From NCBI GenBank assembly GCA_948964755.1, contig CAREEU010000007.1:35417-99416 (forward strand): 64,000 bases of DNA, written 5' to 3'. The translations under genes were made by a program, and so were the position numbers. The notes beneath the pieces were generated by a model that was not told where the DNA came from, did no database searches, and was given only the letters and a program-made list of their open reading frames with translations. The stretch's first letter is position 1, and each line of letters starts with the position of its first letter. This stretch comes from an uncultured Lachnospiraceae bacterium (lineage in GTDB: Bacteria; Bacillota; Clostridia; Lachnospirales; Lachnospiraceae). Positions 2,181-53,376 of this stretch are shown in pieces.

Positions 2181-2441
2181 ACATAAATTGTGCCATAATA
2201 CAGCCAGAGTGCATTAGGGGTACACGGTGACTTCGTAGGAAAGTTAGAGGCTCTTAGACTTCTGTCGATCCATTAGGATTTTTTGCCATTCTCGAATGGC
2301 AAAAAAAGGGGTGTGTTTAGCCCGCTGTACGGGCGAATTGCACCCCGATCCGTCCGGTTAGATACACCCAACACCAGAAGTCTTAGAGCCTCTTACTTTC
2401 CGAAGAGCGGAACCGTGTACCCCTAATGCACTCTGGCGTCC
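2181..2441 (+). repeat. long palindromic element family 1 (LPE-1) copy A; A-type core, alpha-type 5' flank; preceded by an A-rich low-complexity tract at 2030-2200
   Basis: Conserved ends GCCAGAG/CTCTGGCGTCC. Long stem of about 65 bp encloses the core ttttttgccattctcgaatggcaaaaaaaggggtgtgtttagcccgctgtacgggcgaattgcacccc..ccgtccgg. Family has 9 copies in the window. Confidence 0.85.
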
Positions 2442-2465
2442 CCTCCGAAATCCTCTTTCCCCCTC

Positions 2466-3959
2466 TTAAATCCTCCCATACCGCTTTGCAATACCCAAAA
2501 TCTCTTCCTGCAATTCCTTTGACAAATCCTCTTCCGTCAAACGCCACCTCCAGTTCGTCCCCACTGTAGAAGGCGTATTAATCCGACATGTATTATCATA
2601 CCCAAGATAATCCTGCATTGGAATAATACAAGTCTTTGCATTACTTCGCATCACCAAAGCAATAAACGCCTTATACAACAACTCCTTCGGCGTATAAAGA
2701 TCACAAAGATACTCCCTTGCCATCTGCTGCTCTGCCTTTGAAATCGACTCAAACCACCCGCAGATTGTCTCATTATCATGAGTCCCTGTATAAGCCACAC
2801 TATTTTCCATATAATTATGAGGCAGATAGTCATTTGCCGATCCAGAATCCCTAGAATCAAAAGCAAACTCCAACACCTTCATTCCCGGAAATCCACTGTC
2901 TGCAACCAACTGCCGCACCGAATCCGTAACATACCCCAAATCCTCTGCGATTACCTCATGCCATCCAAGCCGCTGCTCTACACAGCGAAACAGCTCAATC
3001 CCAGGACCTTTTTCCCAATGCCCAATCTTCGCCGATTCCGCACCATAAGGAATCGAATAATACTCATCAAATCCCCGAAAATGATCAATCCGCACAACAT
3101 CATACAGCCGAAAACAATAAGCCAGTCTTGAAACCCACCATTCATATCCAGTCTGCTTATGATACTCCCAGCGATACAAAGGATTCCCCCAAAGCTGCCC
3201 GTCTGCCGAAAACCCATCCGGCGGACATCCTGCTACCGCACAAGGTACATTCTGTTCATCTAACTGGAACAATTCTGGATGTGCCCAAGTATCCGCACTG
3301 TCCATTGCCACATAGATAGGAATATCCCCAATCAAGGCAATCCCCTTCTGATTGGCATACGCCTTTAACCGCCTCCACTGTTCAAAAAACTTAAACTGCA
3401 TATACTGCTGAAATTCTATCTCAAAATATAACTCCCTGCGATAATAATCCATCGCAAATCCCCAACGCAGCCGAATATCCTCTGCCCACTGCGTCCATGC
3501 TACGCCCTCAAACCGATCCTTAACCGCCATAAACAACGCATAGTCCGAAAGCCACCACTTATTTTCCTCTACAAACCGCAGATAATCCGCATTTTCACTA
3601 ACCTTGCTGCGTTCATACGCCTTTCGAAGCAAAGGATACCGATTTTGATAGAGTTTCTCATAATCAATATCTTCTAACTGACTTCCAAAATCCGCCTCTT
3701 CACACTCCTCCTCTGTCAAAACCCCTTCCTCTATCAGTGCCTCCAAACTAATAAAATAAGGATTTCCTGCAAAAGTAGAAAATGACTGATAAGGAGAATC
3801 TCCATAACTGGTAGGTCCAAGCGGCAAAATCTGCCAATAAGTCTGTCCGGCTTCTTTCAGCCAGTCTATAAAATCATATGCACTCTTTGAAAAACAGCCA
3901 ATCCCATAGCGGGAAGGCAAACTGGTAATGGGAAGTAAAATACCTGCTGAACGTTTCAT
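2466..3959 (-). CDS. malQ: 4-alpha-glucanotransferase (amylomaltase, GH77)
   Basis: 497 aa. N-terminus ILLPITSLPSRYGIGCF..AGQTYWQILPLGPT is a classic MalQ signature. Confidence 0.9.
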   Translation of the reverse strand: MKRSAGILLPITSLPSRYGIGCFSKSAYDFIDWLKEAGQTYWQILPLGPTSYGDSPYQSFSTFAGNPYFISLEALIEEGVLTEEECEEADFGSQLEDIDYEKLYQNRYPLLRKAYERSKVSENADYLRFVEENKWWLSDYALFMAVKDRFEGVAWTQWAEDIRLRWGFAMDYYRRELYFEIEFQQYMQFKFFEQWRRLKAYANQKGIALIGDIPIYVAMDSADTWAHPELFQLDEQNVPCAVAGCPPDGFSADGQLWGNPLYRWEYHKQTGYEWWVSRLAYCFRLYDVVRIDHFRGFDEYYSIPYGAESAKIGHWEKGPGIELFRCVEQRLGWHEVIAEDLGYVTDSVRQLVADSGFPGMKVLEFAFDSRDSGSANDYLPHNYMENSVAYTGTHDNETICGWFESISKAEQQMAREYLCDLYTPKELLYKAFIALVMRSNAKTCIIPMQDYLGYDNTCRINTPSTVGTNWRWRLTEEDLSKELQEEILGIAKRYGRI

Positions 3960-4841
3960 CTATCTTTCTCCTTTCATCTTTTGCATGATTTCTTCCTCTG
4001 TCTCTATCAAAACTCCAAAATGATCCGATACCTTTGGTTCTCTTTCTCCATTAAACAGCACCTTAGAATACGAAATCGGCATCTCTTTATTACACCAAAT
4101 CACATCCATTCTCATTCCCTCCGGTCTGTCCTGCTCCTGAGAAAATTCTCTCCATCCATCAATACAGCCCTCTACTGTAATCCCGCTGTCCTTTTGCCCT
4201 GCCAGATTATAAGTATCCAGCCATCCATCCCCACTGATACAATCATAACCCTGTCCACGAAATTCTGCCGGACTGTTAAAGTCCCCCATCAGCCAGATCA
4301 CAGATTCCTCCCCTTTCTGCTGCAGCCGAGTATTCAGCCGTTTCCACTGTGCCAAAAAAGGTTCTTCTTCATCTTCCCACCAGCCCATATGAACCGTATA
4401 GAACCAGTGATCACTCTTCTCTGTCCGCACGCCTAATACCCGGCGTGTTTTCCAATTTTTATAGTCCTGACAACCACTGATAAAAAAAGATTCCATCTCG
4501 GTTAGTTTTTGATTAATAGCCAATACGGCGATTCCCTCATCATAGATATCATATCCTATCTTTGCCGAGATCCAAGTCCAAGAACAGGGAATTCCCGCCT
4601 GATGCAGCCGAAATGCTGCCTGTGCAGCATGGTTATCCTGACGAATCGGCACGGCATCCGGGCAGGGAACCCAGCCCTGCAGCAGCTTTGCATCTGCAAA
4701 AGGTGCTGACAGAGACTGATTCACTTCCTGCAAAGCGATCAAATCGGGTTTTTCTTTCTGAATAACAGAAAGAAAGAAATCGAGCTTCTGCAGATAATTC
4801 TCTTCTTGAAGACTGTGTGTATTTAAAGTCAACAGCTTCAT
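3960..4841 (-). CDS. endonuclease/exonuclease/phosphatase (EEP) family protein, probable MapP-like maltose-6'-phosphate phosphatase
   Basis: 293 aa with EEP-type N-terminus LLTLNTHS..PDLIALQEVNQ. Sits between a glucose/maltose-family PTS permease and malQ, as MapP does next to MalT in enterococci. Confidence 0.55.
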   Translation of the reverse strand: MKLLTLNTHSLQEENYLQKLDFFLSVIQKEKPDLIALQEVNQSLSAPFADAKLLQGWVPCPDAVPIRQDNHAAQAAFRLHQAGIPCSWTWISAKIGYDIYDEGIAVLAINQKLTEMESFFISGCQDYKNWKTRRVLGVRTEKSDHWFYTVHMGWWEDEEEPFLAQWKRLNTRLQQKGEESVIWLMGDFNSPAEFRGQGYDCISGDGWLDTYNLAGQKDSGITVEGCIDGWREFSQEQDRPEGMRMDVIWCNKEMPISYSKVLFNGEREPKVSDHFGVLIETEEEIMQKMKGER

Positions 4842-11390: not shown

Positions 11391-11512
11391 AATCAAATCG
11401 GATATTCGCAGTCCGCTTTGCTACTTGCTCATAACCTCATCAAGGAAGTCCCAACCCACCGCTTTCGCCTTGGCGGCTTAGAAGCGGGGAACTTCCTTGA
11501 TAAGATTAAAAG
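11391..11512 (+). repeat. SHE-2 copy (single GC-hairpin module)
   Basis: aatcaaatcggatattcgcagtccgctttgctacttgctcataacctcat caaggaagtccc..gggaacttccttg ataagattaaaag. Overlaps the stop codon of the 11506 gene. Confidence 0.75.
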
Positions 11513-21549: not shown

Positions 21550-21808
21550 GGACGCCAGAGAGTATTAAAAGCACGCTGTTCCGCTCTCCAGAAAACAGAA
21601 ACTCTAAGACTTCTGAATTTCAATGCATCCAACCGGACGGACCGGCACGCAATTCGCCTCTGCAGGAGGCTAAGCACGTGCCTTTTTCGGGCACAAGTGC
21701 CCGAAAATCCTACAGAATCGACAGAAGTCTAAGAGTTTCTAGTTTTCCTCCGAAGTCACAGCGTACTTTTAATACTCTCTGGCTATATAATTCCACAATT
21801 TACGTTTC
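21550..21808 (-). repeat. LPE-1 copy B (B-type core, alpha flank), head-to-head with copy C
   Basis: Core variant cggcacgcaattcgcctctgcaggaggctaagcacgtgcctttttcgggcacaagtgcccgaaaa. Ends ggacgccagag..ctctggct plus the flank tatataattccacaatttacgtttc. Confidence 0.85.
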
Positions 21809-22245
21809 TTTTCTTTCACGGTTGTATGGTTCTTCAATTTGCGTTTTTTCTCCTTGGTGGTTGTATGATTCTGCAATTTACGTTTCTTCCCCTTTATGGT
21901 TATATGACTCTGCAATTTATGTTTCTCCTTAGCGGTTGTATGATTCTGCAATTTACGTTTCTTCCCCTTTATGGTTATATGACTCTGCAATTTATGTTTC
22001 TCCTTAGCGGTTGTATGATTCTGCAATTTACATTTCTTCTCTTTCATGGTTGTATAATTCTGCAATTTATGTTTCTTCTTGGCGGTTGTATGATTCCGCA
22101 ATTTACGTTTCTTCTCTTTCATGGTTGTATAATTCTGCAATTTATGTTTCTTCCCCTTTGTGATTATATGACTCTGCAATTTATATTTCTTCTTGGCGGT
22201 TGTATGATTCCGCAATTTACGTTTCTTTTTCTTTGCAGATGTATA
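21795..22245. repeat. tandem array, about 12 units of 36-39 bp (AATTTAYGTTTCTTnnnCTTnnnGGTTGTATGATTCTGC), derived from the LPE-1 alpha flank
   Basis: Units alternate between two subtypes and are near-identical to one another. The first unit is continuous with the flank of copy B. Confidence 0.8.
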
Positions 22246-22365
22246 ATTTTATTTTGATAAACTCTATTCCAATAAAAGTATCTATAATAAACTCTAATCA
22301 GCTAAATCCAAAAACAAAATTATACTAACAGCAAAGATAACCTCTGCTATTGGCAAAAAATAAGA

Positions 22366-22634
22366 ACATAAATTGCGGGAATACCAGCCAGAGGGAGAAA
22401 GTAAAATGGTATCGCAGTGACTTCGGAGGAAAGTTAGAAGGTCTTAGACTTCTGTCGATTTTGTAGGATTTTCGGGCACTTGTGCCCGAAAAAGGCACGT
22501 GTTTAGCCTCCTGCAGAGGCGAATTGCGTGCCGGTCCGTCCGGTTGGATACACCGAAATTCAGAAGTCTTAGACCTTCTTACTTTCCGTAGAGCGGAACT
22601 GCGATACCATTTTACTTTCTCCCTCTGGCGTCCT
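22366..22634 (+). repeat. LPE-1 copy C (B-type core, alpha flank)
   Basis: acataaattgcgggaataccagccagag..ctctggcgtcc. Variable stem gggagaaagtaaaatggtatcgcag pairs with its own 3' arm. Confidence 0.85.
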
Positions 22635-33287: not shown

Positions 33288-33546
33288 GGACGCCAGAGTG
33301 TTTTAGGGAGACGTGTTCCGCTCTCCAGAAAGCAGAAGTTCTAAGACTTCTGAATTTCCGTGCATCCCACCGGACGGACCGGCACGCAATTCGCCTCTGC
33401 AGGAGGCTAAACACGTGCCTTTTTCGGGCACAAGTGCCCGAAAATCCTACAGAATCGACAGAAGTCTAAGAACTTCTGCTTTCCTCCGAAGTCACAGCGT
33501 CTCCCTAAAGCACTCTGGCTGTATTGTCTCACAATTTACGTTTCCT
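33288..33546 (-). repeat. LPE-1 copy D (B-type core, alpha flank), head-to-head with copy E
   Basis: ggacgccagagtgttttagggagacgtg..core..cagcgtctccctaaagcactctggct gtattgtctcacaatttacgtttc. Confidence 0.85.
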
Positions 33547-33674
33547 TTCTCGATCCTCTATGAATACAGGAATCAACTTTTATGTTTTCTTTTCTCGATC
33601 CTCTATGGATACATAAATCAATTTCCATGTTTTCCTTTTTCGAACCTCTATGGATACAGGAATCAAATAAAAAC
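33547..33674. repeat. tandem array, about 3 units of ~46 bp, reiterating the alpha-flank-like sequence between LPE-1 copies D and E
   Basis: ctttctcgatcctctatgaatacaggaatcaacttttatgttttc repeated with variation. Confidence 0.7.
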
Positions 33675-33943
33675 TTATCGGCAGGAAAAAACAGCCAGAG
33701 TGGGGAAAAGATTCCTTGCCACTGTGACTTCGGAAAAAGTTAGAAAGTCTTATGCTTTTGTCGATCCACTAGGATTTTTTGCCATTCTCGAATGGCAAAA
33801 AAAGGGGTGTGTTTAGCCCGCTGTACGGGCGAATTGCACCCCGGTCCGTCCGGCTGGATGTATCTACATTCAAAAGCATTAGACTTTCTTACTTTTTGGA
33901 GAGCGGAACAGTGGCAAGGAATCTTTTCCCCACTCTAGCGTCC
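33675..33943 (+). repeat. LPE-1 copy E (A-type core, beta flank)
   Basis: tatcggcaggaaaaaacagccagag tggggaaaagattccttgccactg..core..cagtggcaaggaatcttttcccca ctctagcgtcc. Confidence 0.85.
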
Positions 33944-37954: not shown

Positions 37955-38100
37955 ATAAAAAAATGCAGACACGCAAAAAGCATATCTGCACCGTTCTTCC
38001 GCAAATGATGTCCCTACGTTGGCATTATCCAAATCAGGTTTTAAGGGTAAAAGCCTCACATGCTTACTCTCAGCCTATTCTAATAAGCTCCCCATATATT
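37955..38100 (-). ncRNA. TPP riboswitch (THI element) with terminator-type expression platform
   Basis: Minus-strand sequence ggggagc..aggctgagag..acccttaaaacctgatttggataatgccaacgtagggaca matches the TPP aptamer consensus (CUGAGA, ACCUGAUCUGGAUAAUGCCAGCGUAGGGAA). It is followed by the hairpin gcagatatgc/gcgtgtctgc and a T7 run. Confidence 0.75.
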
Positions 38101-38159
38101 TCTATTATAACCTCTTTTTAAAAAAACACAATCCCCTTTTTCCAACAAAATCCTTTAAC

Positions 38160-38334: not shown

Positions 38335-38603
38335 TATCGGCAGGATAAATCAGCCAGAACAAAGAAGCAATTTCTTGCTGACGTGACTTCGGAGAAAAGT
38401 TAGAAAGTCTTACGCTTTTGTCGATCCACTAGGATTTTTTGCCATTCCCGAATGGCAAAAAAAGGGGTGTGTTTAGCCCGCTGCACGGGCGAATTGCACC
38501 CCGGTCCGTCCGGCTGGATGCATCAAAATTCAAAAGCGTTAGACTTTCTTACTTTTCGGAGAGCGGAACGTCAGCAAGAAATTGCTTCTTTGTTCTAGCG
38601 TCC
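38335..38603 (+). repeat. LPE-1 copy F (A-type core, beta flank)
   Basis: tatcggcaggataaatcagccagaac aaagaagcaatttcttgctgacg..core..cgtcagcaagaaattgcttctttg ttctagcgtcc. Confidence 0.85.
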
Positions 38604-48892: not shown

Positions 48893-49158
48893 GGACGCCA
48901 GAGTATGGCATTACAGTACTGTTCCGCTCTACAGAAAGTAAGAAGCTCTAAGACTTCTGAATTTAGATGCATCCAACCGGACGGACCGGGGTGCAATTCG
49001 CCCGTGCTGCGGGCTAAACACACCCCTTTTTTTGCCATTCAAGAATGGCAAAAAATCCTAATGAATCGACAGAAGTCTAAAAGCTTCTAACTTTCCTCCG
49101 AAGTCACAGTACTGCAATGCCATACTCTGGCTGTCTTTTTCCACAATATAGGTATTCT
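48893..49158 (-). repeat. LPE-1 copy H (A-type core, alpha-like flank)
   Basis: ggacgccagag tatggcattacagtactg..core (tttttttgccattcaagaatggcaaaaaa)..cagtactgcaatgccata ctctggctg tctttttccacaatataggtattc. Confidence 0.85.
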
Positions 49159-49455: not shown

Positions 49456-49538
49456 TGCCGCAGGCCGGACTTGAACCGGCACGAGGTCGCCCCCGCTAGA
49501 TTTTGAGTCTAGTGCGTCTGCCATTCCGCCACTGCGGC
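49456..49538 (-). tRNA. tRNA-Leu (anticodon CAA), class II with long variable arm
   Basis: Minus strand GCCGCAGTGGCGGAATGGCAGACGCACTAGACTCAAAATCTAGCGGGGGCGACCTCGTGCCGGTTCAAGTCCGGCCTGCGGCA. 7-bp acceptor, anticodon loop cuCAAaa, T-arm GGTTCAAGTCC. CCA is not encoded. Confidence 0.8.
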
Positions 49539-53109: not shown

Positions 53110-53376
53110 TATCGCCAGAAAGAACCAGCTGGAGTTTGGAAGCCCTTTCTCTATGCAGTGACTTCGGAGAAAAGTTAGAAAGTCTTATGCCTCTGTCGAT
53201 CTCCTAGGATTTTTGCCATCTTCTGATGGCAAAAAAGGGGTGTGTTTAGCCCGCTGCACGGGCGAATTGCACCCCGGTCCGTCCGGTTGGATATATTTTC
53301 ATTCAGAGGCATTAGACTTTCTTACTTTTCGGAGAGCGGAACAGCATAGAGAAAGGGCTTCCAAACTCCAGCGTCC
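53110..53376 (+). repeat. LPE-1 copy I (A-type core with gccatc/gatggc hairpin variant, beta-like flank)
   Basis: atcgccagaaagaaccagctggag tttggaagccctttctctatgcag..core (tttgccatcttctgatggcaaaa)..ctgcatagagaaagggcttccaaa ctccagcgtcc. Confidence 0.85.

Follow-up and report, generated by a model that had tools for sequence, protein, structure and literature searches.

Nine copies (A–I) of LPE-1, a repeated element of ~240 nt, are present in the window, the whole 64,000-nucleotide stretch of DNA from an uncultured Lachnospiraceae bacterium analyzed here. Each copy is probably an RNA gene of the TwoAYGGAY family (Rfam RF01731), in which the duplex private to that copy is an outer extension of the closing helix P1 and acts as a fixed-length structural spacer without a guide function. 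Because the AYGGAY loops are missing, we regard the element as a variant and not as a typical TwoAYGGAY member; it is a loop-variant, highly amplified lineage of this known family. The element itself is not new, and its variable duplex is the covarying helix of a catalogued RNA family as opposed to a new guide system.

All nine copies lie between open reading frames, at a density of approximately one copy per 7 kb. Copies A (2202-2441, + strand), B (21550-21784, − strand), D (33288-33520, − strand) and H (48893-49132, − strand) belong to a short class with a 17-nt variable segment. The remaining copies, C (22386-22633), E (33693-33943), F (38352-38603), G (42990-43238) and I (53127-53376), are all on the + strand and belong to a long class with a 23-nt segment; C is head-to-head with B, and E with D. 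The layout is common to all copies and comprises a terminal clamp AGCCAGAG..CTCTGGCGTCC, the private arms, a junction GTGAC..GAGCGGAAC, a conserved inner stem and a two-hairpin core.

In copy A, all features of which are given on the + strand, the 5′ clamp AGCCAGAG (2202-2209) pairs with CTCTGGC (2431-2437), the latter being part of the 3′ clamp and tail CTCTGGCGTCC (2431-2441). Both sides are conserved in all copies, and the clamp pairs covary now and then (CCAGAG, CTAGAG, CTGGAG). Written as RNA, the terminal clamp of P1 is AGCCAGAG/CUCUGGC plus a GUCC tail. The 17-nt variable 5′ arm of the outer P1 helix, TGCATTAGGGGTACACG (2210-2226), is the exact reverse complement of the 17-nt 3′ arm (2414-2430) and lies outside the Rfam model. 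Next to it, the invariant GUGAC (2227-2231) faces GGAAC (2409-2413) across the helix, GGAAC belonging to the invariant GAGCGGAAC (2405-2413) that provides the 3′ side of the internal loop and of the tandem G.A boundary. The sequences GUGAC and GGAAC are compatible with the succession G-C, U-A, G.A, A.G, C-G and would thus form a putative tandem sheared G.A motif where the variable stem meets the conserved one.

The conserved inner P1 stem and core of copy A (2232-2404) were delineated using RNAalifold and pair counts, together with the Rfam alignment of the sister copy G. Within this stretch are a junction helix GGA/UCC that never varies, hairpin A (UUUUUUGCCAUUC..GAAUGGCAAAAAA) and hairpin B (GGGGUGUG..GCCCG..CGGGC..UGCACCCC), the last with invariant U-G/G-U pairs. 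Compensatory variants are present in both hairpins. The conserved stem neighboring the variable segment also covaries, CTTCTG/CAGAAG being replaced by CTTTTG/CAAAAG or CCTCTG/CAGAGG, which confirms an observation made in the initial annotation of this DNA.

Copies A, G and H, scanned as short stretches, matched RF01731 with 66.7 bits (2231-2408, + strand), 63.7 bits (43025-43199) and 68.2 bits (48927-49102), respectively, against a gathering cut-off of 43 bits. The matches covered the full model (positions 1-168) and occurred on the element strand only. A gathering scan of the whole window reported no Rfam family at the elements; speed filters had hidden the TwoAYGGAY matches, which were recovered from the short stretches. 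The model stops at the GUGAC/GGAAC boundary, and the variable arms, immediately beyond it, prolong P1. P1 of TwoAYGGAY has been described as "often very large (e.g. 24 bp with only 2 mismatches)" (Weinberg et al. 2010, PMC2864571), a tandem G.A has been noted in the family (PMC4333381), and binding of CsrA via two GGA loops has been predicted for it (Gardner and Eldai 2015, PMC4333381). The name-giving AYGGAY is absent from both terminal loops of the copies studied here.

A scan of species-representative genomes with the core pattern returned at least 118 stretches, nearly all of them from the metagenome-assembled genome "uncultured Lachnospiraceae bacterium MGBC128194". One contig of MGBC128194 is 100% identical to positions 2305-4546 of the window, which therefore belongs to that species. 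The number of copies in this one gut Lachnospiraceae genome exceeds 100, as a lower bound. The matches listed, together with the window, yielded a set of 105 distinct full copies for the analyses that follow.

The variable segment is perfectly paired in copies A, C, E and F. Departures from Watson–Crick pairing elsewhere in the window amount to one G-U in B, one G-U in H, one C-A in G, one A-A at the inner end of the segment in I, and one C-A plus a 1-nt bulge in D. Across the 105 copies, 95.2% of variable-segment positions are Watson–Crick pairs, 2.4% are G-U, 1.2% are A-C and 1.0% are other combinations, compared with 50% pairing when the arms are drawn from different copies; the outer duplex is perfect in 44 of the 105. 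These data bear out, for nine of nine window copies, the initial claim that every copy carries a private self-complementary segment whose 3′ arm mirrors the 5′ arm exactly or nearly so, with occasional G-U differences. The segment strings originally listed for copies D and H blend both arms, however, and the range of 18–28 nt given for segment length resolves into two discrete lengths, 17 or 23 nt (18 or 24 nt if the G of GTGAC is counted), with no continuous range between them. In the 105-copy set the segment is exactly 23 nt long in 58 copies and exactly 17 nt in 40, and only 4 of 2163 variable-segment positions are gaps.

Covariation in this helix is massive. In the 23-nt class, examined in 57 copies, 98.6% of cells are paired and both sides have changed in 653 cells, compared with 159 ± 13.5 after shuffling, and none of 500 shuffles reached 653. 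Sliding the partner by 1–3 columns lowers pairing to 41–50% in the same 57 copies. Individual outer-helix positions show as many as four Watson–Crick pair types, and the 17-nt class, which includes copy A, behaves in the same way. The segments are nevertheless related by descent, being graded variants of a few subfamily consensus sequences (e.g., YGGGGAAGCGATTCCTTTCCGCT, TTTGGAAGCGGTATCTTGCTGCT and TGCATTAGGGGTACGCT), and several pairs of the duplex are nearly invariant, such as an A-U in 56 of 57 copies (columns 15/237) and a G-C in 55 of 57 (columns 29/223). The predicted fold of copy A has an energy of −145.8 kcal/mol (z = −15.9); the opposite strand folds equally well (−142.9 kcal/mol), and energy does not discriminate between the strands.

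The types of mismatch do discriminate. The window has a very strong GC skew, for which reason mutation bias must enter any analysis of mismatches, and we counted G-U and A-C oppositions separately according to the composition of the element sense strand. The ratio of G-U to A-C is 23:3 where the sense strand is G-rich and 28:23 where it is C-rich. A strand-symmetric DNA process predicts the mirror image of 23:3, and this is rejected (Fisher p = 2e-4), while mutation bias, too, has a discernible influence on mismatch type (p = 0.004). The excess of G-U over A-C thus tracks the element sense strand and not the replication strand. In the core, the invariant U-G/G-U pairs would be C-A mismatches on the opposite strand. 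Taken together, the bias on the element strand and the invariant wobble pairs of the core indicate that selection for pairing acts on the sense strand in single-stranded form.

This molecule is most likely RNA, the natural reading given the match to an Rfam family; a single-stranded DNA sense strand would also fit the G-U bias. Strong structural selection, one of two alternatives to a guide offered in the initial annotation, gains support from the covariation and the sense-strand bias. The other, hairpin-templated conversion, survives in part: arm-to-arm template switching is possible, but given the strand asymmetry of G-U and A-C it fails as the whole explanation. We infer the strand, the ends and the processing of the transcript from sequence. 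At copies B/C and D/E, scans predicted neither a canonical sigma-70 promoter nor an intrinsic terminator convincingly. A conserved upstream box, AAACGTAAATTG, was considered as a promoter and dropped, as it belongs to a 39-nt tandem unit.

Comparison of closely related copies suggests that the outer stem changes quickly while staying paired. Paralogues with cores 2–5% apart differ on both sides at 4–14 of 32 outer pairs and on one side at only 0–2, and in the closest paralogue pair 3 bases of the core and 5 of 32 outer-stem pairs differ. Double changes so frequent at such low core divergence would also fit a DNA-level correction of one arm by the other operating beside selection. At the orthologous locus of copy G, the outer stems of two strain groups differ in that one C-G pair has become A-U, a double compensatory change, and one C-A mismatch has been repaired; at most one core base has changed, while the flank diverges. 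In a relative whose neighboring protein is 94% identical, the copy G site holds a remnant consisting of the clamp, the tail, a full 3′ arm and an 8-bp stem, and the arm of this remnant differs from that of the window about as much as the neutral flank does between the two species. The remnant is best explained as a deletion between two CGGAAC direct repeats. Insertion of the core into a pre-existing terminator hairpin was rejected, since a full-length 3′ arm and the last six bases of the core are still present in the remnant. In another relative, at 95% identity, the element is absent and an 18-bp intergenic gap takes its place.

Sites are thus gained and lost over short evolutionary distances. 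The outer stem appears to evolve at a roughly neutral rate yet stays paired, the orthologue evidence for rapid compensation coming from one locus, that of copy G. Orthologues of A, D/E and I show almost no divergence across strains, and their contigs often end in the element; the look-up returned no orthologue for copy F and a single short contig for copy C. The copies also recombine, as follows from two observations: hairpins A and B each come in two variants, with every one of the four possible combinations represented in the short as well as the long class, and one copy (locus L084) combines arms of two different subfamilies. Core identity is no clock.

The two length classes are arranged differently in the genome. 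Of the short-class copies with clear flank skew, 30 of 42 occupy the G-rich, gene-sense strand, whereas 53 of 62 long-class copies occupy the C-rich strand and run antisense to the genes beside them. Neighboring copies that form pairs are head-to-head in 18 of 18 cases, 15 of which join a short-class to a long-class copy. The spacers between paired copies contain tandem arrays and no shared coding cargo.

We propose that P1 would be built in three parts, namely the clamp AGCCAGAG/CUCUGGC with its GUCC tail, the 17- or 23-bp stretch, and the tandem G.A loop GUGAC/GAGCGGAAC leading into the inner stem and core. Only pairing and length would be constrained in the middle stretch, which would act as a rigid spacer between two sequence-specific modules and also close and stabilize the molecule. 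Its sequence being free, the stretch would drift at an approximately neutral rate, and mismatches would be tolerated briefly as G-U in the transcript before being compensated or purged. Uniformity of the core would arise because its sequence is constrained and because core modules are exchanged among copies by recombination or gene conversion, an exchange that could not reach into the diverged outer arms.

Most likely, then, LPE-1 specifies a stable, independently folded small RNA in which the long P1 closes and protects the molecule or serves its processing, and in which the clamp, the G.A loop and the core are read by a protein. The rod may be a ruler, or a stem that protects the ends or is processed, for instance as a site for RNase III. 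The core may bind a protein; CsrA is the one predicted for the family, and genes for at least two CsrA-family proteins (Pfam CsrA, 64.5 and 58.9 bits) are present in the genome. The idea of a CsrA sponge is weakened in this lineage because the GGA loops are missing, and it may not carry over. In the literature of the family, we found no validation of the CsrA prediction.

Explanations at the level of DNA must be weighed against an RNA gene. We consider it unlikely that LPE-1 is a palindromic DNA repeat, mobile in the manner of a MITE or duplicative, in which intramolecular template switching (quasipalindrome correction) or hairpin or cruciform repair, and not selection on RNA, is the main cause of arm identity. 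Such an element would account for more than 100 copies in one genome, inside which assemblies break, for the state of the orthologous site varying among close relatives (full element, clamp-retaining deletion remnant or 18-bp intergenic gap), for the great excess of double over one-sided changes even between very similar paralogues, for the 44 perfect outer duplexes among 105, and for both strands folding equally well. It does not account for the G-U/A-C asymmetry tracking the element strand instead of the replication strand (p = 2e-4), for the invariant G-U pairs and the putative tandem G.A loop, or for a scaffold homologous to an RNA family found across phyla. Near-identical copies, a sign of recent transposition, are lacking, the closest pair being 3 core bases and 5 of 32 outer pairs apart. 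At the element ends the 8-bp clamp is the only conserved part, the spacers of paired copies have no cargo in common, no transposase was detected among the few flanking genes and B–C spacer ORFs examined, and nothing similar was found in plasmid or phage records. A fold of single-stranded DNA read by a recombinase or HUH-type enzyme, comparable to integron attC sites or IS200/IS605 ends and with the variable stem as its structure-only part, is very improbable. G-T wobble tolerance on one strand is likewise expected of folded single-stranded DNA, the opposite biases of the length classes relative to GC skew (30:12 and 9:53) recall the replication-strand bias of single-stranded DNA transposons, and sites are gained and lost between relatives. 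Against this stand an above-threshold score on a curated RNA family model, flanks made up of housekeeping genes with no cassettes, no integrase or Y1 transposase among the neighbors examined, and a layout opposite to that of attC, with a conserved core and a variable outer stem.

The remaining alternatives concern what the duplex does in RNA. The guide or specificity segment envisaged in the initial annotation would have the variable duplex processed by an RNase III-type enzyme and one of its strands directing an effector to a complementary nucleic acid, with a different target for each copy. We judge this extremely improbable. Its resemblance to LPE-1 is formal, in that a variable duplex of ~20 bp lies at a fixed distance from conserved modules. 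Long, perfect double-stranded RNA is a substrate of RNase III, and such a duplex would suit the enzyme. The segments are, however, related by descent within subfamilies, with conserved positions in common, and they are of fixed length and fully paired. The variable arms have no match outside the elements in the window, and none above shuffled controls in 844 kb of DNA of the species, a partial sample estimated at a quarter to a third of the genome and biased towards element neighborhoods, in which apparent matches were truncated copies at contig ends. Matches in phages and plasmids, the other place where the initial annotation would have looked, were likewise not obtained: exact 21-mers from three copies were unmatched in viral contigs, as was the core pattern, an exact 21-mer from a fourth copy was unmatched in metagenome contigs, and the whole element had no match in phage and plasmid records. 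A metagenome scan with the boundary pattern gave 38 matches where we estimate ~30 by chance, and only one of these (L160) was homologous. The flanking genes examined are unrelated housekeeping genes encoding a GH77 protein, an FAD oxidoreductase, an M23 peptidase, an HD-domain protein, ThiC, NAPRTase, an FtsA-like protein, an anti-sigma zinc finger, an M32 peptidase and QueH, with no nuclease, recombinase or Argonaute-like effector gene beside the elements. Also improbable is a pair of more speculative readings. In the first, a nuclease acting on double-stranded RNA would measure the perfect, copy-specific duplexes of fixed length and cleave them, each of >100 loci thereby releasing a small duplex RNA of its own, by analogy with precursors of miRNAs or siRNAs; in the second, LPE-1 would be a SINE-like element mobilized through RNA, its hairpin being rebuilt from a single arm whenever it is copied. 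CRISPR, REP-like repeats and open reading frames running through the repeats were rejected on layout and covariation pattern.

With the guide question answered in the negative, the remaining interest of the element is modest. TwoAYGGAY is an orphan family, in the literature of which we found no validated function, and the present lineage lacks the loops that underlie its only functional prediction, that of a CsrA sponge. The ruler length, the clamp and the orientation classes offer concrete starting points from which the partner protein and the family's role could be sought. Moreover, the element family is a good natural dataset for compensatory and concerted evolution within one genome.

Among known systems, guide RNAs (crRNA/tracrRNA, the omega RNAs of IscB and TnpB, the IS110 bridge RNA and pre-miRNA) share with LPE-1 a conserved scaffold carrying a copy-specific segment of ~20 nt. 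Their guides are single-stranded or released, mutually unrelated, matched to a target and adjacent to an effector gene, and none of these properties was found for the element. The repeats ERIC, Correia/NEMIS, RUP, BOX and REP/BIME resemble it in being numerous and confined to intergenic DNA, in forming long imperfect palindromes, and in having sites that are gained or lost between relatives. They conserve their arms as terminal inverted repeats, whereas LPE-1 conserves its core and varies its arms, and they are without a multi-helix core having conserved G-U and putative G.A pairs. Integron attC sites were rejected on similar grounds, since attC has conserved outer R/L boxes and a variable center where LPE-1 has a variable outer stem and a conserved center; attC is also located 3′ of promoterless cassettes beside an integrase, whereas the element is found amid housekeeping genes, with no integrase among the flanking genes examined.

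Sponge sRNAs of the CsrB/RsmZ type are comparable insofar as CsrA binding is predicted for TwoAYGGAY and CsrA-family genes are present in the genome. They differ in that the hairpin loops of the present copies contain no GGA, the conserved GGA being predicted to pair with UCC in the junction helix. A working analogy for a rod that defines or protects the ends is offered by the processing stalks of rRNA precursors. In these, the 5′ and 3′ flanks of a conserved RNA form a long helix that is cut by RNase III, and the sequence of the helix drifts while pairing is kept. LPE-1, known from sequence alone, departs from them in the fixed length of its rod and in its conserved terminal clamp.

The closest relatives are the TwoAYGGAY RNAs themselves. 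The hairpin loops of LPE-1 are UCUCGA or CUUG, and CUGCA, in place of the ACGGAU or AUGGAU of canonical members, and the invariant UAGGAU and a (U/C)UGGAU flank the two hairpins instead. The lineage also stands apart by its amplification to >100 copies per genome, by the opposite orientation bias of its two length classes and by the head-to-head pairing of copies; in the TwoAYGGAY literature we found no description of these differences in loops, copy number, length classes or pairing of copies. In common with the family, LPE-1 has a long P1, an internal loop whose sequence is compatible with a tandem G.A, a junction helix and two adjacent hairpins, and a long P1 extension poorly conserved in sequence is already on record (PMC2864571, PMC4333381). 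Occurrence in several copies per genome and in Clostridia from the gut is likewise shared. Human-gut members in the original alignment have the inner stem CUUAGACUU/AAGUCUUAGA in common with the copies described here, and they too carry long, copy-specific outer stems.

Element copies lying close together adopt a single arrangement. Among the matches listed for the window and the other loci, all copy pairs no more than 1.5 kb apart (18/18) are head-to-head, with their 5' ends facing, and 15 of these 18 pairs of neighboring copies are of mixed class, combining one copy with 17-nt variable arms and one with 23-nt arms. Two such pairs lie in the window, B/C at 21550–22633 and D/E at 33288–33943, and further pairs were found in L009, L028, L030, L035, L044, L053, L061, L066, L068, L093, L097, L104, L112, and other element-bearing database loci. 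The entire D-spacer-E unit recurs at at least 10 loci with 73–77% identity.

Both pair spacers in the window are tandem arrays. The B/C spacer (21796–22227) repeats a 39-nt unit 11.4 times, or can be read as a 75-nt higher-order unit with a 90% match, and open reading frames (ORFs) crossing this array had no Pfam match. The 39-nt unit includes the motif AAACGTAAATTGYRG, which is also present just upstream of copies of the short, 17-nt class. The array in the D/E spacer (33541–33666) consists of 2.8 copies of a 45-nt unit.

The site orthologous to copy G (L144–L147, 3295–3490; L153, 3292–3309) takes three forms in close relatives: the full element, a 13-bp mini-hairpin remnant retaining the clamp and tail, and an 18-bp intergenic gap lacking the element. 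The mini-hairpin is best explained by a deletion between CGGAAC repeats. Recombination between copies is evidenced by a chimeric copy in L084 (1131–1368, plus strand), whose 5' and 3' variable arms are unpaired and each derive from a different subfamily. An 812-aa protein encoded directly downstream of copy G (40461–42899, minus strand) matches the Major Vault Protein shoulder domain at 80 bits and, weakly, a Vault_3 repeat at 29.8 bits; an overlapping SPFH/Band_7 match stays below threshold (22 bits against a cut-off of 23.6). This protein is conserved across relatives whether the element is present or absent.

A separate hairpin repeat family, AAGGAAGTCCCCCGCTT ... AAGCGGGGGACTTCCTT, is unrelated to the TwoAYGGAY-like element and is matched five times in the window (including 1956–2006, approximately 11482–11498, and 40283–40333), where 0.01 matches were expected. 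It also occurs immediately upstream of element copies in two other loci (L011 and L054), and no Rfam family reached its threshold at the repeat sites.

Strand asymmetry in the window is extreme, with a GC skew of -0.16 to -0.48 in all 2-kb bins and nearly all long ORFs on the minus strand, and the mismatch spectrum of the repeats is visibly shaped by this strand mutation bias. The minus strand also carries an ordinary TPP riboswitch upstream of thiamine genes (37994–38104) and an ordinary tRNA (49456–49538).

At least two divergent proteins of the CsrA family are also encoded in this genome (Pfam CsrA scores of 64.5 and 58.9 bits; L101, 774–1049, and L020, 544–675, both minus strand), their genes lying 3–6 kb from elements and not adjoining them. 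Their presence is relevant to the published prediction that TwoAYGGAY RNAs bind CsrA.
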